Shown: positions 9,055-21,988, counted from the first letter of the stretch. The stretch: DNA of 64,000 bases from an uncultured Bacilli bacterium (GCA_934095865.1 CAKOKU010000002.1:57495-121494), one strand, 5' to 3'. Translations and numbers: made by a program. The notes: generated by a model from the sequence alone, not told the origin.

Positions 9055-10170
9055 CTATTTCTTTAATTTAATCTTTAATTCTTTTTCAAAACCATTACGA
9101 TTGATTTTTATAGTTACTGTGTCACCAACATTATGACGGTATAATTCATATTTTAATTTGGCTGAACTTGATACTTTAACATTATCAAATTCTAAAATTA
9201 TATCTTGTGATTTTAAGCCAGCTTCTTCAGCAGATGAACCACTTTCAACTTCGTAAACAACAACGCCACTAGTAACATTATCTGGAATATTCATACGGTA
9301 ATAACTTTCCGCAACAGATAATTCTATCATACTAATTCCTAAACGAGGTCTTGTAATATCTTCACCATTGATTATTTTAGTAGCAAATTCAATAGCGTCT
9401 TCGATTGGAATAGCAAAGCCCATTCCCTCAACACCGCTTGATACTAATTTCATGTTGGTTACGCCAATGACTTGACCATTAGAATTACATAAAGGACCAC
9501 CTGAGTTACCACTGTTAATAGCAGCATCTGTTTGTAAAACACGCATTATATAATCACTAGAGCTACTGTTAGTAGTTGAAACAGCAACCATTCTATCTTT
9601 TCCTGATAAAATACCTCTTGTTACAGTCCACGAATAAGTTGAACTATCTAAAGGGGCACCGACAGCGAAAGTTGTATCACCTACGCGGCCATCAGTACTT
9701 GAACCAATTTCAGCAACAGTCATATCTTTTGATGAAGTAAATGATAATACGGCAATATCTGCATATTTGTCGCCGCCAACCACTTCAACTTCCGTTGTTG
9801 TATCATCAGTAAAGACTATATTTACTTTTGATGAGCTTTCAATTACATGATAATTTGTCATGACATAATATTTATTATTATCTTTTTTAAAGATAAAACC
9901 GGTCCCAGTTGCTTGAAGCTTATTACTGCGGTAATTTTCTACAACTACTACGGAATCGTATACTTTTTCAACCGCATCAGCAATGCCATTTTCATTTACT
10001 GTTACTTCTTTTTCTAGTTTATTAACAACAGTCGTACTTGGATTAAGTCTAATTATTTCGTACATGGCAAAAGCACCAACGGCAATTAATAACAAGGAAA
10101 TAAATATTTTATTCCAAACATTATTTTTTTCACCAACTACTTTAGCATTAACATAATTTTTTTCATTCAT
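9055..10170 (-). CDS. htrA: HtrA/DegP-family membrane-anchored serine protease with PDZ domain
   Basis: N-terminal TM. Catalytic triad context TNYHVI (His), DIAVL (Asp), GNSGGPL (Ser). C-terminal PDZ-like region. Start ATG overlaps the stop of the upstream Abi_2 gene (TAATG). Confidence 0.85.
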   Translation of the reverse strand: MNEKNYVNAKVVGEKNNVWNKIFISLLLIAVGAFAMYEIIRLNPSTTVVNKLEKEVTVNENGIADAVEKVYDSVVVVENYRSNKLQATGTGFIFKKDNNKYYVMTNYHVIESSSKVNIVFTDDTTTEVEVVGGDKYADIAVLSFTSSKDMTVAEIGSSTDGRVGDTTFAVGAPLDSSTYSWTVTRGILSGKDRMVAVSTTNSSSSDYIMRVLQTDAAINSGNSGGPLCNSNGQVIGVTNMKLVSSGVEGMGFAIPIEDAIEFATKIINGEDITRPRLGISMIELSVAESYYRMNIPDNVTSGVVVYEVESGSSAEEAGLKSQDIILEFDNVKVSSSAKLKYELYRHNVGDTVTIKINRNGFEKELKIKLKK

Positions 10171-11120
10171 TATATATCCATCCTTACTATTTCTTTATAA
10201 TTTTGAGGGAATCCCATCGCATCCATTACTTTATCTATATTAATAGTTTTTAATTTTCCAGCTAGAATGTCTAACTCATATGATATTTCATTTACTAATA
10301 ATCTAAAATCTTCATTTCTTAGTATCTGTCTTAATATAATAATTAATGCAAATAAATCGTCTTTTCCATAAATATATTCACCGTTCATTTTTGGAATATT
10401 TAAGTAATAATGATATTTGTTATCTTCAACAACTCTTTGGGAGCGGTGATTATATAAGATATCTTCATGGGCACATAAGTTACGGTAATTAGACATAATT
10501 GGGAAATACTGACATAGTTGTTCAGAGGATAAGTTATAAATGTCAGCAATTGCTTTTTGATCTTCAGGTTTTAAAATATTATATAATTCACTTATGATAC
10601 CAAAAGATAAGACTTTTACTACAATCCATAAAGGTACATACCCATAATTTGTCATGTAGTGCATGGTTGCAGAATGTTGACCACCATTTACCCGAATTTG
10701 ACGTTGCATTTTTTTAATTAAATCATTAACTTGGCGTTTTTTAGTTGGGTCAGTATTAAAATTTTTAGGATTTAAATAATGTTTTTCTTTAATACCATAT
10801 TTTTTGGAGAGTTGGTATGAGAAAATACTTTTAGCATTATTTTCAACTATTAAGATGTTTTTGAAAATAATATTACGAACTTGGCGGTCGAAATTGAAAA
10901 CAGCATATAATTCGCGAAAATTAGTATTTGTAATGAATGTACGGTCTGTTTCACTTTTTATGAACAAGTGACGGTATCCCATTAAAAAGAAATAATTTTC
11001 TCTTAAAAGAATATCTTTAGCATACTCAATATCATCAATGATTAAACCTTTTTCTTCTAAAATGGTTACTTGTTCATCAATTGTTTTAAATGTCTTTTGT
11101 CTGGACGCCATATAATTCAC
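10170..11120 (-). CDS. Abi_2 (AbiD/AbiF-like) abortive-infection family protein
   Basis: 316 aa. N-terminus KTFKTIDEQVTILEEKGLIIDD...NYFFLMGY matches the conserved N-terminal signature of Abi_2/AbiD/AbiF proteins. Translationally coupled to htrA. Confidence 0.65.
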   Translation of the reverse strand: MNYMASRQKTFKTIDEQVTILEEKGLIIDDIEYAKDILLRENYFFLMGYRHLFIKSETDRTFITNTNFRELYAVFNFDRQVRNIIFKNILIVENNAKSIFSYQLSKKYGIKEKHYLNPKNFNTDPTKKRQVNDLIKKMQRQIRVNGGQHSATMHYMTNYGYVPLWIVVKVLSFGIISELYNILKPEDQKAIADIYNLSSEQLCQYFPIMSNYRNLCAHEDILYNHRSQRVVEDNKYHYYLNIPKMNGEYIYGKDDLFALIIILRQILRNEDFRLLVNEISYELDILAGKLKTINIDKVMDAMGFPQNYKEIVRMDI

Positions 11121-11198: not shown

Positions 11199-11756
11199 TT
11201 AAGTGAAATAGTCGATTATCCCAGATGTGATGACTTCGGCGATTTGGGTCTGATATTCTTTGGTTTGTAACTTTTCTCGTTCGTTGGCATTAGAAATAAA
11301 GCCACATTCGACTAATACCCCCGGAAGCTTTAGGCGTCTATACATATATATATTAGGCATATTTTTTATAGAGCGGGGATAACTTATCTCGTTAAAACGT
11401 GCTTGAATTTTCTCGGCTAATTTTTTATTTTCTTCACCATAATAAAATATTTGACCGCCATAATATGATTTATCATCTAAATAATTAATATGAATAGAAA
11501 CATAGAGGTCTGCTTTGGAATTATTTATTAAATCAATACGATTGTCGAAGTCGCTTTTCTTTCTTCTCTTGGCATTAGGTGTTGATAAATCATAATCGCC
11601 ATCTCTAGTTAAAATTACACTAGCTCCATTTTTTATAATTGTTTCTTCTAGGGCATGACTAATTTGTAAGTTTAAGTCCTTTTCTAAAACATTTTGATAA
11701 CTGGTTCCTGGATCATCACCACCATGTCCAAGAATCGGAAAAGTCCAAATTATCAT
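11199..11756 (-). pseudogene. cwlD: 3' portion of split cwlD-like N-acetylmuramoyl-L-alanine amidase gene (Amidase_3)
   Basis: Encodes ...ILGHGGDDPGTSY...ADLYVSIHINY...LVECGFISN...IDYFT (Amidase_3, CwlD-like) but lacks signal peptide/TM. The missing N-terminus is found at 21872-21988. The listed ATG at 11756 is probably fortuitous element-derived sequence. Confidence 0.8.
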
Positions 11757-11764
11757 CTTTTATC

Positions 11765-13372
11765 TTAAAATTCTAAGTTCCATTCTATTTCAATATCTCG
11801 TGTTTTCGTTTCTTTATCATAAACTCCGACATAAACCTTATCAATAAATTCATCAACTATTACTTTGTTTAATTCTTTGATATGCTTATATTTTTTTAGT
11901 ATTTCATCAGCTTGTTTTCGTTCTTCTTTAACAACTTGTAGGTTATTTATCTCATTATCAATCGTTTCAACTCTTTTTGTCATTGATTCGATTTCTCTTA
12001 AATAATCACTAGACATCATACTAAACATATCTTCAGTAATAGTTCCTTTTACCTTATCTTCATATAGATTTCTATAAAAGGTTTTATTATCTTCTATTTT
12101 TTTGTTAAGATTATATTTTTCTTTTTCTAAAACTTTTATTATTTCACAATTACTTGTGTCTTGTTGATTTCTTCTATTATAGAGTTCTTGTAAATTATTT
12201 TGATCGTAGTAATTATCTAGTAAATCATTAATTGCATTAAGTAGTATAGTTTCTAATTCATCCATTCTAATTGCTTTGTTATTATCGCAAGTGTGATATT
12301 TTTTAGCACCTTTACATTGTAGGTATGCTCTTTTACCTGTCTTTTCTCCTTTAACATTGTACACATTTCTCATAAAAACCTTATCACATTCCATACAATA
12401 CACTTTTCTACTTAAATAATGTATCTCTCCTGTTTTAATCGGTTCTTGATGTGTACCTAGTATCTTTTGCACTTTGTTCCATGTTTCCTTATCAATAATA
12501 GCCTCGTGTGAGTTTTCTATTCTACACCAATCTTTTTCTGCTACTTTTTTAAACTTATGAACTTTATATCCCATTGAAGTTATTTTTCCTTGTACAAGAT
12601 TACCTATATAAAATTCATTTCGTAGCATTTGGGCTATGGTATCAGGATTCCATCTTACATTTTTATAATCACAATTAGAACATACAAATTTACTTCCTTT
12701 TTGTTTCTTATATACTGACCTTGGTGGAATATTATTGTTATTTAGATATTCACAGATTTTATGGTAACCATTTCCCTCTGCATACATTTGAAATATCTTT
12801 TTAACAACTTCAGCAGCCACAGGATCAACAACTAACTTGTGTTTATCTTCTTCACTTCTATCATAACCATAAGGAGCAAAACTTCCCATAAATAAACCAT
12901 CTTCTCGTTTATTCTTTAATGACTTTTTGATATTTGTTGATAAATCATCTAAATACCATTCATTGATAAGCCCATTTATTTGTCTTGATTTCTTGTTAGA
13001 TTCAATACTTGTATCAGCGTTATCAACAATACTTACAAATCTTACTCCCCATTCAATAAATTTATTGTGTAAATATCTTTCAATGACTTCCATATCTCTT
13101 GAAAATCTTGATTGACTTTTGCATAAAACTAAATTGATTTTACCACTTTCACAATCTTTGATAAGTCTTTCAAAGTCAGGTCTATAAGTTCCTGCTCCTG
13201 AAAAATCATCATCTGAATAAATATCTACAACATTCCATCCATTTTGATTAGCATATTTTAAACACATACTTCTTTGATTTACTATACTATCACTATCATC
13301 ATTTTTATTTATCTTATCTCTATCTTCATCAGATAATCTACAATATACACCTACCTTTTCTATCATAGCCAT
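11765..13372 (-). CDS. large serine recombinase (resolvase/invertase N-domain + recombinase + zinc-ribbon + coiled coil)
   Basis: 535 aa. N-terminal VGVYCRLSDEDRD (catalytic Ser context). Cys cluster CSNCDYK...CMECDK...CKGAKKYHTCDN. C-terminal coiled coil. Situated 9 bp upstream of the cwlD 3' fragment, as spoIVCA is in skin. Confidence 0.85.
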   Translation of the reverse strand: MAMIEKVGVYCRLSDEDRDKINKNDDSDSIVNQRSMCLKYANQNGWNVVDIYSDDDFSGAGTYRPDFERLIKDCESGKINLVLCKSQSRFSRDMEVIERYLHNKFIEWGVRFVSIVDNADTSIESNKKSRQINGLINEWYLDDLSTNIKKSLKNKREDGLFMGSFAPYGYDRSEEDKHKLVVDPVAAEVVKKIFQMYAEGNGYHKICEYLNNNNIPPRSVYKKQKGSKFVCSNCDYKNVRWNPDTIAQMLRNEFYIGNLVQGKITSMGYKVHKFKKVAEKDWCRIENSHEAIIDKETWNKVQKILGTHQEPIKTGEIHYLSRKVYCMECDKVFMRNVYNVKGEKTGKRAYLQCKGAKKYHTCDNNKAIRMDELETILLNAINDLLDNYYDQNNLQELYNRRNQQDTSNCEIIKVLEKEKYNLNKKIEDNKTFYRNLYEDKVKGTITEDMFSMMSSDYLREIESMTKRVETIDNEINNLQVVKEERKQADEILKKYKHIKELNKVIVDEFIDKVYVGVYDKETKTRDIEIEWNLEF

Positions 13373-13642
13373 TCCTCCAATACTAGAGAACAGCTATAAA
13401 TATTTGTAAATACAAGTATATTATATCTCATATTTAGGATTCTTTAAATGCTAGTTTTTGATTTTCTAAAATCATAATGACATTTAACAATTTATTATTA
13501 AATATACTTTTTAATTCATCATCAGTTCTATTTTCATTTGTCTTAAATTTATATTTTACATTATATACTACCTCCATTTTCTTACTTCCCCCTTTTTTCA
13601 TATTCTATAATCTAAATCCTCCAATCATACACATCTCTCCTT

Positions 13643-14119
13643 TCATTTATAATCTTTCATTAGTTCTTCCATTTCTTTTTGTTCTTCTTCATTTAATGGG
13701 ACTGAAACACATACTTCAGGGTGTTCCAGCCAATAAGGAATTATTTCTTTTCTTTTATTATTCTTTTTATATTTATTATTATTTATATTATGGGTGCAAT
13801 TGCTTGCACTATCATTACTGCAATTTTCTGCATCTTCATCTGCAACTTTTGTTGGTATCTTTTCCATATTTAAATATATTCTTCGTTTACTATTTTCATT
13901 TTTTACTATGATATAGCCTAGTTTCTTTAATTTAGACAATGAGTAATTTATCGTTCTTTCTGATGAATTTATATACTCTTTTAGATAATCATTAGTAGCA
14001 TAACAATACCCTTTATTTAAGGCAAGTGATATGATAAGACTTAAAACATCAATATCAGTTCTTGATAAGTTCTTATCTCTAAATAATATTCGTGGAGTTA
14101 TGATAAATTCACTAGTCAA
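13643..14119 (-). CDS. winged-helix DNA-binding protein (possible replication initiator/regulator of the element)
   Basis: 158 aa. N-terminal wHTH-like DIDVLSLIISLALNKGYCYATNDYLKEYINSSERTINYSLSKLKKLGYI. Confidence 0.45.
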   Translation of the reverse strand: MTSEFIITPRILFRDKNLSRTDIDVLSLIISLALNKGYCYATNDYLKEYINSSERTINYSLSKLKKLGYIIVKNENSKRRIYLNMEKIPTKVADEDAENCSNDSASNCTHNINNNKYKKNNKRKEIIPYWLEHPEVCVSVPLNEEEQKEMEELMKDYK

Positions 14120-14171
14120 TTTTAAAATAATTATTCTCCTTAAATCTAAAATGATATTGGACTTTTTCCTA

Positions 14172-14188
14172 GCCTATTAAAAATAGGC
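14172..14188. promoter_or_regulatory. perfect inverted repeat GCCTATT-AAA-AATAGGC (candidate operator)
   Basis: 7-bp arms with 3-bp spacer, ~55 bp upstream of the wHTH gene start. No T-tract follows, so it is unlikely to be a terminator. Confidence 0.3.
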
Positions 14189-14314
14189 AAAGTTATCCCC
14201 AGAACATAATTTTAAATCCTGTCCCTAGGATTGAATGAAGTTTATTCTATTTTGATAGAAAAGGTACTAACATAAGCCTATATATCTTACTGTACCATAT
14301 CTACTAGGAGTTAT

Positions 14315-14578
14315 TTAACAACCTAGTAGATTTATTGTGTACATTCCTGTATCATATTCCTTGTAGATTAGATACTTTAATTGTTCCAATATTTCAAGAT
14401 TCCTTTTTAAACCTTTATTTTTAATTTTTACTACTTGTTGTAATTCTCCAACATTTAAATCTGTGATAATCCTATCTTGTCCTTTAGCGTAGATATATGA
14501 ATATATCAGTTTTCCCTCAGGTTTGATTCTCTTATCCTTTAAAATCTTTGTTGGCATTTCCTGATGTCTTTTATTCAT
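14315..14578 (-). CDS. small winged-helix DNA-binding protein
   Basis: 87 aa. Pattern similar to the adjacent wHTH protein (IYSYIYAKGQDRIITDLNVGELQQVVKIKNKGLKRNLEILEQLKYLI). Confidence 0.4.
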   Translation of the reverse strand: MNKRHQEMPTKILKDKRIKPEGKLIYSYIYAKGQDRIITDLNVGELQQVVKIKNKGLKRNLEILEQLKYLIYKEYDTGMYTINLLGC

Positions 14579-14753
14579 TCATAGATTTCCTCCTTTCTTG
14601 TCAATTAACATTTTAAGTATAATGTTAACTTTCAGAAACATCTATAATATACATAATAATTACTAACTTGTCAACACTTTTAGAAACAATTTTAATTATT
14701 TTGTTGATTTTAGTTAACATATATGCTATTATGTACTTGTGAGGTGTATTACA

Positions 14754-15257
14754 ATGCAAGAAAAAAAGATTGGCGAAATTATTGCCGAAGCACGAGAAAA
14801 AGCAGGTTATTCGCAAAGGCAACTTGCAAAAGAAGCAAATATTAGTAATGCCGAATTATCTAAAATAGAATCAGGAGAAAGAGAAATACCAAATCCTAAA
14901 ACATTAAGAAAAATAAGTAAATATATAAATGTTAATTATAATGAAATGATGTATAAAATAGGTTTAGGTATGGAAGTCAGTTCATTAAACCCATTTATTA
15001 AAGCCTATTATGAAAAGATGAATTTAGATGAACTGAATGAGGCTGAAATCAATGTTTTAGGTAGTATCGAAAATTCAAGAAAACTTGTTGATTCGTGCAA
15101 AGAGAATTTAAAAAAGAAAAACATATTAGAAAACGAAAAAGAACTACTACTACATACAATAGAAGATACTGAATATCAAATCAATACTTCTAGAGAAATT
15201 GTAAATTTGATTCAAAGTTTAAAAGTAAAGGAGAGAAACAAAAATGCAAAAAAGTAA
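14754..15257 (+). CDS. XRE-family HTH transcriptional regulator
   Basis: IGEIIAEAREKAGYSQRQLAKEANISNAELSKIESGER is a canonical HTH_XRE. Divergent from the wHTH gene, a switch-like arrangement. Start taken at MQEKKIGE. Confidence 0.75.
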   Translation: MQEKKIGEIIAEAREKAGYSQRQLAKEANISNAELSKIESGEREIPNPKTLRKISKYINVNYNEMMYKIGLGMEVSSLNPFIKAYYEKMNLDELNEAEINVLGSIENSRKLVDSCKENLKKKNILENEKELLLHTIEDTEYQINTSREIVNLIQSLKVKERNKNAKK

Positions 15258-15690
15258 AATTTTAATAAGAAATATTGGAATCATATTATTAAATATTTTT
15301 ATGGTAGTAAGCTTGGTATTAGTTTTATTTCAGAAAAATGATTATGGCTATAATTTATATTGGGTTATTAGTCCATTTCTAATGGTATTAGTGTTAATGG
15401 TGATAGGTAGGTGGAGCATAAGAGGATTAAATGTTGATAGAGAAGAATCCCAAGTGATACAACGATCTTTTGATGATACAACAACTATATCAACAGTAAT
15501 CTTTGGAATAATATATCTAACTATACAATTTATAGACTATGTAAAAAATGGTCTAACAAATAATTCAATAATTATTATAATCTTCTTCGTTGTCATGATT
15601 ACCTATGAACTTATAACCTACTTAGCTATATATGTAGCCATAAGAGATACTGCAAGATTATTAGAGAAAACATATAATAAGAAAAAATAG
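15244..15690 (+). CDS. hypothetical multi-pass membrane protein
   Basis: 148 aa, 3-4 predicted TM helices. Overlaps the 3' end of the XRE gene (operon). Confidence 0.45.
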   Translation: MQKSKILIRNIGIILLNIFMVVSLVLVLFQKNDYGYNLYWVISPFLMVLVLMVIGRWSIRGLNVDREESQVIQRSFDDTTTISTVIFGIIYLTIQFIDYVKNGLTNNSIIIIIFFVVMITYELITYLAIYVAIRDTARLLEKTYNKKK

Positions 15691-15876
15691 TCTTTTTCGC
15701 TTTTCGTAAGATTAGCGATTAGACTATTCTTTTATAAAAAGGCGAGGCACGTTTTGTTTGCTTTAGAAAATGAAAGTGGCGATAGCCTTTTTCTTTTTAT
15801 GTAACGATAGTGAAATAAAAAGGCAACTATATTACATTGTGAAACTTTGTAATATAAGTTGCTTCTAGGGTTTCCA

Positions 15877-15892
15877 AAGGGAATATTCCCTT
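15877..15892. promoter_or_regulatory. 16-bp perfect palindrome AAGGGAATATTCCCTT
   Basis: Seen directly, in a 350-bp non-coding region inside the element. Candidate protein-binding site. Confidence 0.3.
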
Positions 15893-16047
15893 GGCACACA
15901 TCGTTATTGGCTTGCCAATACCGTAGTGTGTTACTATAATGAAATTATAGTCTATAAAATCGAGCCATTAGTTGCTTAATTTCTTTTGGCTCGGTTTTTA
16001 TTTTAAACTGTTTTATAGATTGTAATTTGTAATTATTTCTATATATG

Positions 16048-18147
16048 CTATTTAGTATTTATTTTTTTACAAATTGGACATCCTCTACCTCTATTTCTAT
16101 TTGATATAATTGCTTCCCACTCATGTCCTTTGTTACATTTCCACCATACCTTTTTTCCACTGTTTGATGCAACCATATCTGGTTTTAAATCACCATTTTT
16201 TTCATAATTCCATTCTTTTGTAAGTGTTGGATTAATAGTTGCAAGATCATTATATCCTTTAAGTATTTGTTTATTTTTACAAACTGGGCATCCTTTTCCT
16301 TTATTTCTATTATCAATACTTGCTTCCCACTCATGTCCTTTGTTGCATTTCCACCATACCTTCTTATTAGCATTTGCTGTAACCATATCTGGTTTTAAAT
16401 CACCATTTTTTGAATAATTCCATTCTTTTGCAAGTTCTGGATTAATAGTTGCAAGATCATTATATCCTTTAAGTATTTGTTTGTTTTTACAAATTGGACA
16501 GTCATTTCCATTTGTCCTATTTGATATAGTTGCTTCCCACTCATGACCTTTGTTACATTTCCACCATACCTTTTTATTACTTCCTAAAGTTACATCTTTA
16601 GGGGTTAATGATGCGTTCTTTTCATAGTTCCATTCTTTCGCAAGTATTGGATTAGTAGTTGCAAGGTCATTATACCCTTTATGTATTTGCTTGTTTTTAC
16701 AAATTGGACATCCTCTGCCTTTATTTCTATTTGATATATAGGTTTCCCACTCATGACCTTTATTACATTTCCACCATACCTTTTTATTAGCATTTACTGT
16801 AACCATGTCAGGTTTTAAATCACCATTTTTTTCATAATTCCATTCTTTTGCAAGTGCTGGGTTAATAGTTGCAAGATCATTATACCCTTTAAGTATTTGT
16901 TGACTTGCACAAATTGGACAACCAACTCCATCTGTTCTACTATATATACTTGCTTCCCACTCATGACCTTTATTACATTTCCACCATACCTTTTTTCCAC
17001 TGTTTGATGCAACCATATCTGGTTTTAAATCACCATTTTTTTCATAATTCCATTCTTTTGCAAGTTCTGGATTAATAACCATTAATGAATGTTTCTTTTG
17101 TCTTTTTATAAATGATGTATATATTAAAATACGGTCTCTATCCAAATTAACATCTATGGTTTTATTAAAATGTTTTACTATATGTTCGATGGCAAATTTA
17201 ATTCCTTCATCAGAATATGTACATGGTATTATTTTTAAATAATCATTTTCTATAATTTCTTCTTTGAAATCTTCCTTTACTCTAAAAAGAAGAATTTCAT
17301 TTTCTTTACAAAGTTTATTTTTTCTTTCATCTTTTTCTGGATTCTGATGCCAAAATATCCCATCATATTCAACAGCAACTTTTTGTGATGGAATAAAAAT
17401 ATCTAACTCCATTTTCAAATGGCGATCACCATTTATAGCATCTGGAAACAATTTTTTTAAATAAAAATAAATTGCCTGCTCTGGAAAAGAAGTTTGTAAT
17501 TCTCTTGCACAAATTGGGCAACCATTACCTTTATTTCGACTAGATATAATTGCTTCCCACTCATGCCCTTTAACACATTTCCACCATACTTTTTTATCAC
17601 TATTTGGCTTTACCATATTTGGTTTTAAATCACCATTCTTTTTGTAATTCCATTCTTTTGCGAGTGTTGGATTTATAGTTGCTAGATCATTATACCCCAT
17701 GATTGATTGCCTACCTGAGCAAAAAGGACATCCAATGCTCTTACTTCTACTTTTTATACAGGCTTCCCATTCATGTCCTTCAGAACATTTCCACCATACC
17801 TTCTTACTGCTCCCTATGGTTACATCTTTAGGGGTTAATGGTGCATTCTTTTCATAATTCCATTCTTTTACTAAATCCGATCTTTTGTCAAATAGACTGC
17901 CATTTTTTTCTACTAAGGCTTTAATCCTATTTTTTCCTCTTTTAGAAAGTGAGCATATCGGACAGCCTCTACCTTTATTTCTATTTGATATACTTGCTTC
18001 CCACTCATTTCCACATTCGGAACATTTCCACCATACCTTTTTATCGCTTCCTGTTGTTAATAACTTTGGATTTAATCCTTCATTTTTTGAATAATTCCAT
18101 TCTTTCATTAGATATTCATTATCGATTAAATATTTTTTGTCTTTCAT
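16048..18147 (-). CDS. multi-zinc-ribbon (treble-clef) repeat protein with central Vsr/DUF559-like PD-(D/E)xK nuclease domain
   Basis: 699 aa from MKDKKYL (GGTGA-type RBS upstream). Eight ~57-aa repeats LAKEWNYEKNGDLKPDMV...KKVWWKC.KGHEWEA.IS.R.KG.GCPIC, three before and five after a core ELDIFIPSQKVAVEYDGIFWHQ...ILLFRVKE resembling Vsr/DUF559 endonuclease folds. Confidence 0.6.
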   Translation of the reverse strand: MKDKKYLIDNEYLMKEWNYSKNEGLNPKLLTTGSDKKVWWKCSECGNEWEASISNRNKGRGCPICSLSKRGKNRIKALVEKNGSLFDKRSDLVKEWNYEKNAPLTPKDVTIGSSKKVWWKCSEGHEWEACIKSRSKSIGCPFCSGRQSIMGYNDLATINPTLAKEWNYKKNGDLKPNMVKPNSDKKVWWKCVKGHEWEAIISSRNKGNGCPICARELQTSFPEQAIYFYLKKLFPDAINGDRHLKMELDIFIPSQKVAVEYDGIFWHQNPEKDERKNKLCKENEILLFRVKEDFKEEIIENDYLKIIPCTYSDEGIKFAIEHIVKHFNKTIDVNLDRDRILIYTSFIKRQKKHSLMVINPELAKEWNYEKNGDLKPDMVASNSGKKVWWKCNKGHEWEASIYSRTDGVGCPICASQQILKGYNDLATINPALAKEWNYEKNGDLKPDMVTVNANKKVWWKCNKGHEWETYISNRNKGRGCPICKNKQIHKGYNDLATTNPILAKEWNYEKNASLTPKDVTLGSNKKVWWKCNKGHEWEATISNRTNGNDCPICKNKQILKGYNDLATINPELAKEWNYSKNGDLKPDMVTANANKKVWWKCNKGHEWEASIDNRNKGKGCPVCKNKQILKGYNDLATINPTLTKEWNYEKNGDLKPDMVASNSGKKVWWKCNKGHEWEAIISNRNRGRGCPICKKINTK
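16050..18100. repeat. intragenic tandem ~171-bp coding repeats with long near-identical stretches
   Basis: For example 16141-16230 and 16981-17070 are essentially identical. Several alternate-frame ORFs in the six-frame track are artefacts of this repetition. Confidence 0.8.
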
Positions 18148-18258
18148 TTTCTCACCTTGCTTCAACAAATTATTATTTCTAGCTAAATTACATAAATAAT
18201 TATACCAAAAAAAACAACTCATATACTAGCAGTTGTTATTTAGTTTCGTCTTACTTTT

Positions 18259-19536
18259 TTACATACTTATTTCATAATCATTCTTTTCTTTTTCTTTAGA
18301 TTTTTTACTAGTTTTTAAATAACTAGGTGCTTTTACATAATCAAATAATTCATCTTCTTTGGTAGTTCCTCTTAATATTTTAACAACATCATTCATATCA
18401 AAATCGTTGTTATCAAAATAGTCTTTTATTTCAGTTGTAGTGGCTTCTTTCGTAGGTTCATTACCAATTTGTAATAATTTTCTGAAAAAGTGTTTTATAG
18501 CCTCCAAAATGGCTTTTAAATAGTCTTTAAGATGGTTATTCTCTTTTGTTAAGTTTTGATTTCTTGTAGTAAGTGCTTTTACTTCTCGTTGTAGATTTGC
18601 ATTTTCTTTTTCTAATGTTTGATGACTTTTACTAAAAGTATTTACCTCGTTAAATAATTGTTCCATTTTAGGTTGAAATTCCATAACCTTTTTAGTTTCT
18701 TTTATTACATTTTGCATACTAGCAAAAGTATCTTTTCGTACCTTTACATATTCTTTATCTATTAAAGTATTTTTAGTAGTTTTCATTTTTTCTTCAAATT
18801 CATTCATAGCATTATCAAGATTTTTATTTATAGTAGTTACTTTAGTTTCATAATATCTTGTTGTTTTCTTGAATTCCTTTACTTTTTGATGTTTTCTATC
18901 ACTACCCTTAATACCTCTTTCTAATTCAAAACCATTTTCTCTTAATCTTAAATTATAAATATCTTGCAATTCAGATAAGTGTATATTGTCTCTAATATAT
19001 TGCTTTTTAGAGATAGTAAACCTTTCTGTATTTGTTCTTTTATCAAACTTCTTAATAAGGGGTACAACAACACAATGAATATGAGGTGTTAGTTCATCCA
19101 TGTGTATTGTTGCGTGTAATATTTGTTCTTTCTTATAACCTAAATCATTGTAAACAAAATCCATACAAGTATCAGCCCATCTCATTATTTCATCTTCACT
19201 CATATTATCAAAAAATTTATGTGTTGCAGTAAACATGAGTTCATCAGCTACAACACTTTTAGATTTATTTAACATTTCATTAAATGTCTTTTTTCTTTCA
19301 GGTCGTTCATTTTTCATACGTTCATTATGCTCTTTTTCATAATCTTTTACAAGCAATTTAAAACCCTTAACATATTTCTCTGCTAAGGGTACTAATTCTA
19401 TATTATTTTTAGTTAATTCTAATTTAATATCTTTATTACTTTTATATGCTTTTTTCTCTCGTTTATTGTGTGATCCTATTTGTGCTAAATCGTTTATAGT
19501 CATTATTGGTTGACTTCTAAATATTCCATAATTCAT
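18259..19536 (-). CDS. mob: MobV-family (Mob_Pre) mobilization relaxase
   Basis: N-terminus MTINDLAQIGSHNKRE (HN.R motif); HIHCVVVP (HxH motif); long coiled-coil C-terminal half. Typical plasmid/IME Pre/Mob architecture. Confidence 0.75.
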   Translation of the reverse strand: MNYGIFRSQPIMTINDLAQIGSHNKREKKAYKSNKDIKLELTKNNIELVPLAEKYVKGFKLLVKDYEKEHNERMKNERPERKKTFNEMLNKSKSVVADELMFTATHKFFDNMSEDEIMRWADTCMDFVYNDLGYKKEQILHATIHMDELTPHIHCVVVPLIKKFDKRTNTERFTISKKQYIRDNIHLSELQDIYNLRLRENGFELERGIKGSDRKHQKVKEFKKTTRYYETKVTTINKNLDNAMNEFEEKMKTTKNTLIDKEYVKVRKDTFASMQNVIKETKKVMEFQPKMEQLFNEVNTFSKSHQTLEKENANLQREVKALTTRNQNLTKENNHLKDYLKAILEAIKHFFRKLLQIGNEPTKEATTTEIKDYFDNNDFDMNDVVKILRGTTKEDELFDYVKAPSYLKTSKKSKEKEKNDYEISM

Positions 19537-19607
19537 TTATCGTTCCTCTCTTTCTTAAAAAATTGCATAATAAAAGACACTTCACTATTAAAGTATCTTT
19601 TTGAAAT

Positions 19608-20120
19608 CTATTTTTTTTTGCTTATTCTCTTTACTCTTGAAGATATAAATCTATTTTGCTTAACAAACGAAAAAGCAAAAAGTATTGTCAGTAATGTAAA
19701 CATTACCAAAATTAAAATATCTTTATTAATCAAACTTGAAATTTCAAACATCACCATTATTTTTAACGCCAATTCAATTAGCATTAAAGTACATAAGCTT
19801 CTATACATATTACAATCTTGATTTAAAATTTCTAGTTTGTCATCTTTCTTATTTGCTTCTATATATTTATCATAAGGTTCTTTTTTCAATTTCCATATTT
19901 TAACTATTATCTTCTCAATTACTAATGAGGATATTCTACTAATTATAATACCTATAAAATATGCTTCAAAAAATGAATAAATTAGACTATCTATAATTAG
20001 ATTTTTTTCCATTATTTGACCACTAATAATTAAAAATAAATAACCTGGTACTAAATAGTTAAATATGTGATAGCTACTGATTTTCTCTATTATTTTATCC
20101 ATTTTAATTAATCCTTTCAA
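19608..20120 (-). CDS. hypothetical membrane protein (4 TM)
   Basis: 170 aa hydrophobic. Overlaps the upstream gene by 17 nt (operon with 20104-20535 and the MBL gene). Confidence 0.4.
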   Translation of the reverse strand: MKGLIKMDKIIEKISSYHIFNYLVPGYLFLIISGQIMEKNLIIDSLIYSFFEAYFIGIIISRISSLVIEKIIVKIWKLKKEPYDKYIEANKKDDKLEILNQDCNMYRSLCTLMLIELALKIMVMFEISSLINKDILILVMFTLLTILFAFSFVKQNRFISSRVKRISKKK

Positions 20121-20535
20121 ACGAATAGTTAATCTTATCTTTTACCGAAGTATAAGAACAGTTATATAAATCAAGCTCCGAATTAGTTATTTCAAAATCA
20201 AAACCATATTCTTTTCCATTTAATTTATCAGTTGTAGTATCAGTAAAAAACATATCTTTATTAGGAAACTTTATTTTTTTTACTAATCCTTGATAACAAG
20301 TAATCATCACTATATCATGTTCTTTTGGTTCTTCATTCATTAAAAAACTATAAACCTGGTTATTATGTCCATTTATGAATACTACATTACCATAATTTTC
20401 TGGTATTGACCTTAATTCAATATAATTGTCAAAGAAAAAAGGAATTGTATAAATCTTAAAAACATCATATAGATATTCTTGTCTAGATCTTATTTCTTCA
20501 AAAGTTATTTTTTTTCTTAAAAGGATATATCTCAT
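20104..20535 (-). CDS. hypothetical protein
   Basis: 143 aa, no recognisable motifs. Overlaps both neighbours. Confidence 0.35.
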   Translation of the reverse strand: MRYILLRKKITFEEIRSRQEYLYDVFKIYTIPFFFDNYIELRSIPENYGNVVFINGHNNQVYSFLMNEEPKEHDIVMITCYQGLVKKIKFPNKDMFFTDTTTDKLNGKEYGFDFEITNSELDLYNCSYTSVKDKINYSFERIN

Positions 20536-21397
20536 AACAATTTAAAGTTCCCCTTCTTTCTGCTTTAAATGAATTTTGATTTATACTAAAAGCACCATTT
20601 TTAGTATTCATAATTCGATGTCCCTTAACCTCTAAGTTGTCAGAGCCACCATTAATGTCAGCACCTTTATTATCAGAAACAATATACAACACATCGTTTC
20701 GTTTTTCATTTTTTTCAAATACTTTCTGAGCCATATCATTGTTTCCATGGTGAGGTAATTGAATAGCATCATAATTTCTAGTTTTATCATCAAAAGCAGC
20801 AAAGTCGGCATCTCCAGTTAACAATAACTTTTGTCCATTAAAATTTACTTCTAATTGAACGCTTATAGCATTCATTATCGTACTGCTATCTATATTATTA
20901 CTCTCATTTGGGGTAAATTGTTTAGCAACAGCATCAATAAAATATTCTGTTGCAGGTCCTACAATCTTTAAATTGTCAGATAAATTATTATCATCATCTA
21001 AAGCATCCTTTAAATTTTGTCCTGATAAAGAATAAATGTTACTATACATATCTTTAATATTCTGGGTTAAGGAGTCCCTAGTAACTCTATTATCCTCTAT
21101 TTTATCAAAGATTGCATCTTTATATTTTAATAACAATAATGTTGTAATAGAATTAACTACACCATTATCAACTAATTTTGGTATTCCATCAAAATGATCG
21201 CTATCATTATGTGATAAAACTAAATCAACTTTATCTATATTTTTTTCCTCTAAATAGTGTAGTACTTGATCTGCCAATTCTTCAGAACCACAATCGTACA
21301 CTGTAACACTACCATTATCATTAATAATAAAGCAGTCTCCATAATCAACATTATCTTTTTGCTCCTTAGGAGCAAGAACTTTTATTTCTAAATTCAT
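20498..21397 (-). CDS. ComEC-type metallo-beta-lactamase fold protein
   Basis: Start MNLEIKV with GGAGG RBS. LVLSHNDSDHFDG (H.D.DH variant of HxHxDH); TGDADF; LPHHGNND (the HHG motif of ComEC/Rec2-type MBL domains). Confidence 0.6.
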   Translation of the reverse strand: MNLEIKVLAPKEQKDNVDYGDCFIINDNGSVTVYDCGSEELADQVLHYLEEKNIDKVDLVLSHNDSDHFDGIPKLVDNGVVNSITTLLLLKYKDAIFDKIEDNRVTRDSLTQNIKDMYSNIYSLSGQNLKDALDDDNNLSDNLKIVGPATEYFIDAVAKQFTPNESNNIDSSTIMNAISVQLEVNFNGQKLLLTGDADFAAFDDKTRNYDAIQLPHHGNNDMAQKVFEKNEKRNDVLYIVSDNKGADINGGSDNLEVKGHRIMNTKNGAFSINQNSFKAERRGTLNCYEIYPFKKKNNF

Positions 21398-21466
21398 ATT
21401 ATTCCTCCTCTTTTTAAAAATAAAATCAGAGGTAGATACCAACTTCATTAAACTAATTCAAAATAA

Positions 21467-21510
21467 AACATATTTTACCTCCCTTCCTGTTGAAGAAAAG
21501 GGTAAAATAT
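21467..21510. promoter_or_regulatory. 13-bp-arm inverted repeat AACATATTTTACC...GGTAAAATATGTT upstream of the MBL operon
   Basis: Seen directly. Sits in the 5' region of the minus-strand operon. Candidate operator or structured RNA leader. Confidence 0.3.
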
Positions 21511-21871
21511 GTTAACTACCAATTTTTTATGTTTGACATTTTATCAAAAAATGTGTAATATTATAGTAGGAATTGATTTCATATTTTTCCAATCAGTTCT
21601 TCAAACATTTCGTTATTGTTTGTCTTAATTCGTTGGTAGTTAGTATCTACCGATAAGGAAATATGCTTATTGCCTGAGCATATTTTTTTCTTGTCTTCTT
21701 GTCTTAATTGACATATATCCTTATAGACAAAATATATCATAAAATCACATGATTGGCAATAGATATATAACAGTGCTAATTATTTTTATGAAAAAAGATA
21801 CTTTTTTATCAAAGTACCTTAATTTCTTGTATTTACTTATCTTTATAGCTATTATTTTATTTTTGGATTTT

Positions 21872-21988
21872 TCAGTATCCTCCATGGCCAACATCAATAA
21901 CTATTAGTTTTCCACTTAATGGTAAGGAAGCTCTCGCACACGTTATGGATAGGAAAAAACATAAGATTAACATTATTATCTTTCTCAT
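21872..21988 (-). pseudogene. cwlD: 5' portion of split cwlD: signal peptide/TM and start of amidase domain
   Basis: Minus-strand translation MRKIIMLILCFFLSITCARASLPLSGKLIVIDVGHGGY* matches the B. subtilis CwlD N-terminus (...SLPLSGKIIYLDPGHGG...). It ends exactly where the 3' fragment at 11756 begins (..ILGHGGDDPG). Too short to appear in the ORF track. Confidence 0.8.

Follow-up and report, generated by a model that had tools for sequence, protein, structure and literature searches.

A stretch of 64,000 nucleotides from an uncultured Bacilli bacterium (GCA_934095865.1, CAKOKU010000002.1:57495-121494; the whole stretch is called the window below) carries a mobile element at positions 11722-21886, inserted in a cwlD-like amidase gene. 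The sequence comparisons make it likely that this is an integrative mobilizable element (IME) of a family not described before, which is widespread in uncultured low-GC gut Bacilli and would integrate, excise and transfer as outlined below. It has its own integrase and attachment (att) sites with precise integration, its own relaxase, and no type IV secretion system (T4SS) or coupling protein. A first-pass annotation of the window had proposed a hybrid between an IME and a skin-like intervening element of a sporulation gene. The mobilizable part of that proposal is well supported: the element is integrative, has only a relaxase for transfer, and would need a borrowed pore. The skin-like part, a sporulation-gene element that gained mobilization genes, is not supported; the family is large, and its recombinases accept the His-Gly-Gly codons in whichever Amidase_3 gene these occur. 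New are the family and its target; the kind of element, an IME with a MobV relaxase and a serine recombinase, is known.

Limits of the element and the empty insertion site

The element is delimited by two CATGG cores and measures 10,160 bp. The host region is AT-rich (ca. 27% GC) and its minus strand carries nearly all genes. The core at the right end (attR, 11722..11726, minus strand) covers His-Gly codons and represents the crossover region; homology of copies stops here at all loci. Homology between copies likewise ends at the left core (attL, 21882..21886, minus strand). Beside the right core lies a conserved, putative recombinase-binding arm, ATTTGGACTTTTCCGATTCTTGGA (11727..11750, minus strand), that is kept as ATTTGGACTTTTCCGATTC(C/T)TG(C/G)A in family members down to ca. 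75% recombinase identity. The span of 11765-21448 given in the first-pass annotation describes the limits of the genes; those of the element, set by core homology and the empty site, are 11722-21886.

The 5' part of cwlD (21887..21988, minus strand), encoding MRKIIMLILCFFLSITCARASLPLSGKLIVIDVG..., reads into CATGG and then into element DNA. The 3' part of this cwlD-like Amidase_3 gene is found at 11199..11721 (minus strand) and runs from the codons for GG-DDPGTSYQ... to the stop, which places the split at the Gly-His-Gly-Gly codons. Joining the halves at the core (11199..11721 and 21887-21988) gives an open reading frame (ORF) of 209 aa with a full-length match to TIGR02883 (spore_cwlD) of 193.6 bits, under the cut-off of 221.55. 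The joined CwlD is 100% identical to an uninterrupted protein, P0001, and this allele is present in two other metagenomes. An empty site was found in two contigs, L089 and L090, each of which encodes exactly the joined CwlD; their identity to the flanks in the window is 99.4% and 98.9%, and their attB reads GTTGGC-CATGG-TGGTGAT. The split gene is adjoined by rpsI, with cotJB and cotJC nearby. In Bacillus and Clostridium, cwlD also stands beside rpsI.

A protein identical to the relaxase of the element is encoded in 42 blocks of public assemblies. At seven other loci that were fetched the element is 99.4-100% identical and homology ends exactly at both cores. The flanks of the near-identical copies fall into four classes, namely the cwlD locus of the window and three other genes, all of the Amidase_3 type. 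The four target genes are cut at the same codons (...VIDAGH|GG..., ...VVDAGH|GG..., ...VIDPGH|GG...), and the form with the insertion in cwlD recurs across several metagenomes. The empty sites and near-identical copies indicate that the cwlD insertion is precise, recent and polymorphic in the species.

Some further features of the insertion locus were noted. The annotated ORF at 11199-11756 starts with nine element-derived codons (MIIWTFPIL). We considered whether the in-frame ATG supplied by the element (MIIWTFPIL-GHGG...) serves as a conserved device for re-expression of the amidase and rejected this, as the ATG is confined to the closest clade and is probably incidental. Directly downstream of cwlD and outside the element lies an AbiD/Abi_2 abortive-infection gene (10170-11120, minus strand; PADLOC E 4.5e-59), which also adjoins the empty site in L089. 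In two of the assemblies (L006 1-5531 and L007 1-5182) the element stands in tandem behind another element whose recombinase is 51% identical. This partner has an origin of transfer (oriT)-like motif of its own (L006 881-921) and appears to use the amidase site too, in the manner of accretion at one attachment site.

Target genes of the recombinase family

Scanning GTDB with one genome per species yielded 167 relatives of the recombinase, and the loci of 80 were fetched. All 80 are from uncultured gut metagenome-assembled genomes (MAGs) of human, mouse, rabbit, ruminant or chicken origin, and nearly all are labelled Bacilli, Mollicutes or Tenericutes. They share a backbone that runs from the relaxase gene (mob) to the recombinase gene (rec): mob, a conserved non-coding block, xre on the opposite strand, an 87-aa gene, an HTH_36 gene, a 47-aa ORF, and rec. 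About 50 of the 80 loci have the remainder of an Amidase_3 gene after rec, starting with the His codon. The distance from rec to the amidase is 25-75 nt (mostly ca. 40 nt), and ca. 0.4-1.2 kb in a dozen loci.

The genes hit are cwlD-type in 11 species (169-195 bits on TIGR02883) and long, LysM-bearing amidases in ca. 24 species (54-63 bits); a third group consists of truncated fragments. Nine of the 11 cwlD-type insertions have their nearest neighbor, by recombinase, in a LysM-type gene, with two 100%-identical pairs among them. Recombinases that are 98-100% identical serve cwlD-type and LysM-type targets alike, and one genome (L017) has an intact cwlD orthologue with the element in another amidase. 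A clade of recombinases dedicated to cwlD was rejected by this nearest-neighbor analysis. The family targets the His-Gly-Gly codons of Amidase_3 genes in general, and cwlD is only one of the landing sites.

Several loci depart from the common arrangement. In about 11 of them the amidase remainder is only 79-92 aa. Such a short remainder is followed by other mobile-element genes or genes of unrelated serine recombinases in at least L001 (17780-21278), L031 (11641-19920) and L074 (11622-13725); in L001 these are genes for TnpV and for restriction-modification of type I. There may thus be a second hotspot of insertion deeper in the same amidase genes. In some relatives an extra module of ca. 0.9 kb is present between rec and the amidase after a partial right-end arm (ATTTGGACTTTTC...). 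The gap between rec and the amidase is ca. 0.9-1.2 kb in L010, L018, L023, L026, L038, L039, L044 and L048 and ca. 0.4 kb in L017 and L034. Two elements with 70% recombinase identity (L047 and L060) are oriented opposite to the amidase gene: their flank downstream of rec (ca. 11600-11680) reads CCACCATGGCCGGCATCAAT, the reverse complement of the sequence encoding IDAGHGG. The extended core CCATGG is palindromic. In L009 a gene for a SleB-type cortex-lytic hydrolase (Hydrolase_2; 13042-13464, minus strand) lies beside the LysM-type target amidase, which hints that some LysM-type targets are in spore formers too.

Relaxase and evidence for mobility

The protein of 425 aa encoded at 18259..19536 (minus strand) had been annotated as a MobV/Pre relaxase and this was borne out. 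It matches Pfam Mob_Pre (E 3.9e-29) and NCBIfam MobV NF041497 (108.8 bits, cut-off 100) and aligns over ca. 200 residues to the structure of MobM (4lvi; E 1e-14). In this alignment the motifs are all intact: H23-N-K-R26, A-D-E-L, and H-M-D-E-L-T-P-H-I-H, which correspond to the HxxR motif with the catalytic His, the acidic motif II and the HxDExxPHxH motif III of MOBV1 relaxases. The inactivating motif changes that the first-pass annotation had named as evidence against mobilization are not present in the relaxase. Among 22 distinct relaxases of the family there are no internal stops and the HxxR and HxDExxPHxH motifs are invariant. The dN/dS ratio versus close relatives is 0.10-0.14; the relaxase is under purifying selection.

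The backbone DNA (mob, and the stretch from the non-coding block through rec) is 92-94% identical to that of elements in mouse-gut MAGs, whereas ribosomal protein S9 (RpsI) of one such mouse-gut host is only 81% identical at the amino acid level. This difference points to horizontal spread of the element.

The proteins of the element (11 ORFs) were searched against Pfam, NCBIfam, PHROGs and PADLOC. In agreement with the earlier statement that capsid and T4SS genes are missing, no capsid, terminase, packaging, T4SS or coupling-protein family was found among the 11 ORFs with these four libraries. All backbone ORFs are intact. The gene order on the minus strand is metallo-β-lactamase (MBL)-fold protein, 143-aa protein, 170-aa membrane protein, relaxase, 724-aa repeat protein, 87-aa protein, HTH_36 protein, 47-aa ORF and recombinase; the genes for the XRE regulator and a 148-aa membrane protein are on the plus strand.

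The recombinase (535 aa; 11765..13372, minus strand) is a large serine recombinase with Resolvase, Recombinase, Zn_ribbon_recom and DUF4368 domains and a PHROG integrase match (E 3e-109). In essentially all loci of the family the 47-aa ORF (MEVVYNVKYKFKT...; 13434..13577, minus strand) precedes rec by ca. 65 nt. It matched no known family in PHROGs and further library searches. Since it is a constant companion of rec, even in the clade with 50% recombinase identity, it is the best candidate for a recombination directionality factor.

Candidate origins of transfer

A conserved non-coding block of the backbone with multiple hairpins (15700..15951, minus strand) lies between the repeat-protein gene and the 148-aa gene. 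Its nucleotide identity is 70-93% in ca. 40 family loci, whereas the flanking proteins are merely 30-60% identical. The 5' part of the block folds into three hairpins as single-stranded DNA (-19.5 kcal/mol, z = -6.3). The middle one, CACAC-TAC-GGTATTGGC-AA-GCCAATAAC-GA-TGTGTG (15895..15930, minus strand), is the oriT candidate, with a predicted nick after G15895 (GTGTG/CC). The inner stem of this hairpin covaries (GATATTGGC/GCCAATAAC, CAAGTTGG/CCAACTAGG, TAAGTCGGT/ACCAACTTA), and so does the outer stem, which changes from CACAC/GTGTG to CCCAC/GTGGG in seven sequences. The motif occurs once per element and always on the mob strand.

The oriT of plasmid pMV158 reads GCACAC-ACTTTAT-GAAT-ATAAAGT-ATA-GTGTG/TT; it is nicked on the coding strand, where the outer arm has its 3' end (PMC3105389, PMC5863519). 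The candidate matches this layout of a hairpin within a hairpin ending in GTGTG/. Among plasmid relaxases the closest (38% identity) is encoded on a Priestia plasmid, in which mobV is preceded by a site of the same design, CACAC...GTGTG/TT. Because of the pMV158-like layout, the covariation of two stems, the single copy, the location on the mob strand and the parallel in Priestia, we place oriT at 15930-15895 with a predicted nick after G15895, an assignment that we favor with some reserve. In the 3' two-thirds of the block (15700-15873, minus strand) there is a hairpin resembling a terminator, and the strings TATCGCCACTTTCAT and ACAAAACGTGCCACG are conserved; at a guess, this part could be a single-strand origin like ssoA of IMESag-rpsI.

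The first-pass annotation had pointed to 15700-16047 and 19537-19610 as places to search for a MobV oriT. The former holds the candidate just described; the latter contains a conserved hairpin of terminator-like form. Every relative has such an AT-rich hairpin of 9-11 bp with a T-rich tract directly upstream of mob. The window has hairpin B (AAAGATACTT-TAATAGTG-AAGTGTCTTT with T-rich tract; 19573..19600, minus strand) at this place and a second copy, hairpin A (21795..21820, minus strand), just inside the left end of the element. It is conceivable that oriT is this hairpin and that the block at 15.9 kb is a single-strand origin or a regulatory RNA. The position is canonical for MOBV plasmids, 19 sequences retain the 9-bp stem, which shows compensatory changes at 4 positions, and strand specificity is conferred by G-T pairs that work on the mob-sense strand only. 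Furthermore, the two copies flank the PDC-M48 cargo, as recombination of the Pre/RSA type could yield. Against it stand the form of an intrinsic terminator, with a stem of 9-11 bp and a T-rich tract, and the lack of the MOBV1 nick motif GTG(T/C)G/ in the window copy, whereas the block at 15.9 kb has this motif in a pMV158-like nested hairpin. We consider this location of oriT unlikely, and the hairpin is better explained as a terminator or attenuator that would shield mob from read-through.

Regulation and cargo

The operon for the 87-aa protein, the HTH_36 protein, the 47-aa ORF and the recombinase is preceded by a sigma-70-like promoter, TTGACA-17-TATATT (14646..14674, minus strand; 11/12 consensus positions), in the divergent region common to xre and this operon. 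In addition rec has sigma-70-like boxes of its own, TTTAAA-17-TATAAT (13448-13420). Scanning for the promoter consensus performed no better than on shuffled sequences in DNA of 27% GC (69 sites found, 75 expected). Only sigma-70-like boxes and no sporulation-type signal were recognized in front of rec, of the 47-aa ORF and of the operon, although such signals are not reliably judged here. Between the -10 box of rec and the ribosome binding site lies a 28-nt sequence (13389..13416) that is an inverted copy, 86% complementary, of a repeat at the left end of the element (21826..21853, designated I7; AATAGCTATAAAGATAAGTAAATACAAG on the minus strand). The left copy is conserved at the left end of relatives. 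A plausible role of the repeat is that of a shared operator, with one protein binding in both places.

The regulator divergent from the operon is of the XRE family, as annotated before (14739..15257, plus strand; HTH_3 E 1.8e-15). Its gene overlaps that of the 148-aa membrane protein (15244..15690, plus strand), which is predicted to be co-transcribed and is conserved with xre in relatives; the protein matched no family. Two winged-helix proteins had been proposed for the operon. This holds for the 158-aa protein (13643..14119, minus strand; HTH_36 E 2.8e-8), which resembles the N-terminal DNA-binding part of phage and plasmid replication initiators. For the 87-aa protein (14315..14578, minus strand) the proposal found no support: it is conserved across the family (42-97% identity) and gave no family match and no BLASTP hit to the HTH_36 protein, and its single-sequence AlphaFold model was unusable (pLDDT 55).

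Cargo varies among relatives in two slots, one between the left end and mob and the other between mob and the non-coding block. In the first slot the window has an operon (19608..21448, minus strand) for a PDC-M48B-like MBL-fold protein, a 143-aa protein and a PDC-M48A membrane protein of 170 aa. The MBL-fold gene (21448-20498, probable start 21397) has a Lactamase_B match. PADLOC recognizes PDC-M48A (E 2.8e-44) and PDC-M48B (E 1.5e-20), adjacent genes with a single ORF of no known family in between, and the operon is a candidate for defense cargo. In most relatives this slot is empty, with mob directly after the left end. The operon is bracketed by the two diverged copies of the mob-upstream hairpin (21820-21795 and 19600-19573), and it seems that the cargo entered at the hairpin; recombination of the Pre/RSA type is one possibility. 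Between hairpin A and the MBL-fold gene there is an untranslated leader of ca. 390 nt (21400-21790, minus strand) with a sigma-70-like promoter, TTGCCA-17-TATATT with TG (21759-21731), and no Rfam match; an E-value scan of the element with Rfam gave chance-level matches only.

The second slot is occupied by the gene of a 724-aa protein (16048..18222, minus strand) with 8 DUF4379 zinc-finger repeats (E 9e-174 over 8 stretches) and a central Vsr-like nuclease region. The Vsr match is faint, and HNH/homing endonuclease families of PHROGs were matched as well. The gene is absent or different in relatives. It is made of 210-nt tandem repeats, and repeat number varies among near-identical copies of the element, giving 629 aa in L003 (11389-13278) and 699-724 aa in others.

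Proposed mechanism and alternative explanations

Comparison of occupied and empty sites shows how the element integrates: its serine recombinase joins ...TTCTTGGA-CATGG-AGGATACTG... in the element to the DNA for the Gly-His-Gly-Gly zinc-site motif of Amidase_3. As attachment is at a conserved motif of this domain, any such gene can serve as attB. The XRE repressor would control the divergent sigma-70-type promoter of the operon for the 87-aa protein, HTH_36 protein, 47-aa ORF and recombinase, and de-repression would lead to precise excision and formation of a circle. The MOBV1-type relaxase would then nick the mob-sense strand behind GTGTG, where the nested hairpin at 15930-15895 has its 3' end, with His23 as the predicted catalytic residue by homology to His22 of MobM. 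For export of the relaxase-DNA complex, a conjugative element in the same cell would have to supply coupling protein and pore, since the IME encodes neither. The PDC-M48 candidate defense operon and the DUF4379/Vsr-like nuclease would be carried along as cargo in the two variable slots.

Some observations do not fit this scheme easily. The four insertion sites of the near-identical copies may lie in one species or in several; no DNA of the 64-kb window recurs in their flanks. The oriT candidate lies ca. 2.3 kb downstream of mob, unlike the upstream position in MOBV plasmids, and its predicted nick is followed by C instead of the T found in characterized MOBV1 nick sites. No helper conjugative element was found among ten of the larger ORFs of the window outside the element. 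Finally, no circular attP junction was detected in JGI metagenome contigs with exact and degenerate patterns, which is a weak negative since that collection may lack these samples. The missing circle might suggest that the element is a decayed, immobile island with a dead relaxase and recombinase. The near-identical copies in four target genes, the empty sites, the intact backbone ORFs and the purifying selection on mob make this very improbable. Hardly more credible is a degenerate prophage, or a phage satellite, with transduction as its means of spread. The XRE switch, the HTH_36 protein resembling replication initiators and a PHROG 'tail protein' match of the MBL-fold protein could be taken as traces of a phage, but the last is limited to the MBL domain and capsid, terminase, portal and packaging genes are lacking. 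The family is also essentially absent from the 2.9 million viral contigs of IMG/VR, in which two distant recombinase relatives were the only hits, and the LysM-type targets that were checked (L009, L020) are in ordinary chromosomal neighborhoods and not in prophages. On the latter two grounds we rejected a prophage or satellite origin.

More weight has to be given to the possibility that the copy in cwlD, besides being an IME, is excised specifically in the mother cell, so that cwlD is rebuilt for muramic-δ-lactam formation in the cortex and the element stays in the forespore. The interrupted gene resembles cwlD over the full length of TIGR02883, stands beside rpsI with cotJB and cotJC nearby, and is restored to the exact wild-type ORF by excision at the core. 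Genes of the cwlD type are struck in 11 species, and the insertion in cwlD is found in several metagenomes. In C. difficile, cwlD is under the control of SigE and specific to the mother cell, and germination suffers when it is lost (PMC3789822, PMC6021603); mother-cell expression of the gene is taken from this C. difficile literature and not from the present host. On the other hand, the same element is present in three other amidase genes, and its closest relatives are equally found in amidases other than cwlD, LysM-type genes being the location of the nearest recombinase in 9 of 11 cases. Such indifference to which amidase is struck argues against a dedicated developmental role. The promoters are sigma-70-like, with no sporulation-type signal identified, and the insertion is polymorphic and recent, which leaves its tolerance unproven by time. 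Moreover, many host MAGs are labelled Mollicutes or Tenericutes and may lack the ability to sporulate. Excision in the mother cell is in our view doubtful. The same holds for the broader proposition that in spore formers the mother cell excises the cwlD copies, and perhaps copies in further sporulation amidases, or that these copies set the germination behavior of a gut commensal by their presence or absence; we give it a rather small chance. In the former case an island open to conjugative mobilization would at the same time be a developmental switch of cortex modification, and in both cases mobilizable islands would, beyond defective prophages, feed the pool of sporulation-gene intervening elements. 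In any case cwlD deserves attention as a recurrent natural insertion target, with rescue by excision and changed germination as alternative outcomes.

An IME that uses amidase genes in general would have a route to a broad host range and to several landing sites per genome. The DNA recognized by its integrase has to stay conserved, since it codes for a catalytic motif in an enzyme domain that is ubiquitous. In uncultured gut Bacilli, which are hard to study, variable and defense-like cargo appears to be commonly carried by this family, and the attP/attB pair and the oriT candidate could become genetic tools for these organisms.

Comparison with known systems

Known intervening elements of sporulation genes include skin in sigK, SPbeta in spsM, gin in gerE and yin in yabG (PMC4191935, PMC5595907, PMC10747680). 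As in these systems, an element with a large serine recombinase is inserted in-frame in a mother-cell gene that precise excision would rebuild. The known elements use one gene each and are excised under the control of the sporulation cascade, whereas the element described here uses many amidase genes, carries a relaxase, is polymorphic and has no sporulation control signal that we could see. Our literature search on sporulation-gene intervening elements found neither cwlD among the targets nor an element with a relaxase.

With the MobM/oriT system of pMV158 the element shares the catalytic His and HxDExxPHxH motif of the relaxase and, in its oriT candidate, the layout of CACAC, inner hairpin, bulge and GTGTG-nick on the mob-sense strand. 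The two relaxases align over only ca. 200 residues (E 1e-14) and the inner hairpin is different (GATATTGGC/GCCAATAAC). The base after the predicted nick is C and not T, and the oriT candidate is located away from the mob promoter.

A close parallel in composition is with Tn4451 and Tn4453 of C. perfringens and C. difficile, which encode the large serine recombinase TnpX and the MobV relaxase TnpZ with an RSA/oriT site, have no T4SS, excise as circles and are mobilized in trans; target specificity of TnpX is low (PMC5704250). Insertion in that family is at GA dinucleotides, and the RSA site precedes tnpZ. The element likewise has one large serine recombinase, one MobV relaxase and no T4SS. It differs in being specific for the His-Gly-Gly codons of Amidase_3 genes, a distinction drawn from the published descriptions. 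It also has candidate defense cargo in place of catP, another gene order, and an oriT candidate that is not beside mob.

IMEs of Firmicutes with a serine recombinase and a MOBV1 relaxase include IME_SsuNSUI084_SNF2 and the MOBV1 IMEs of streptococci and Faecalibacterium (PMC5704250, PMC12084326, PMC5090054). Features in common with these elements are the MOBV1 relaxase, site-specific integration that disrupts a gene and, as far as the candidate is concerned, an oriT of the pMV158 type with GTG(T/C)G/ at its end. IMESag-rpsI is different in having a tyrosine integrase and an oriT directly upstream of mob. What sets the present family apart from the Firmicutes MOBV1 IMEs is its occurrence in uncultured gut Bacilli and a target motif that is common to a whole domain family, which would offer several alternative attB sites per genome.

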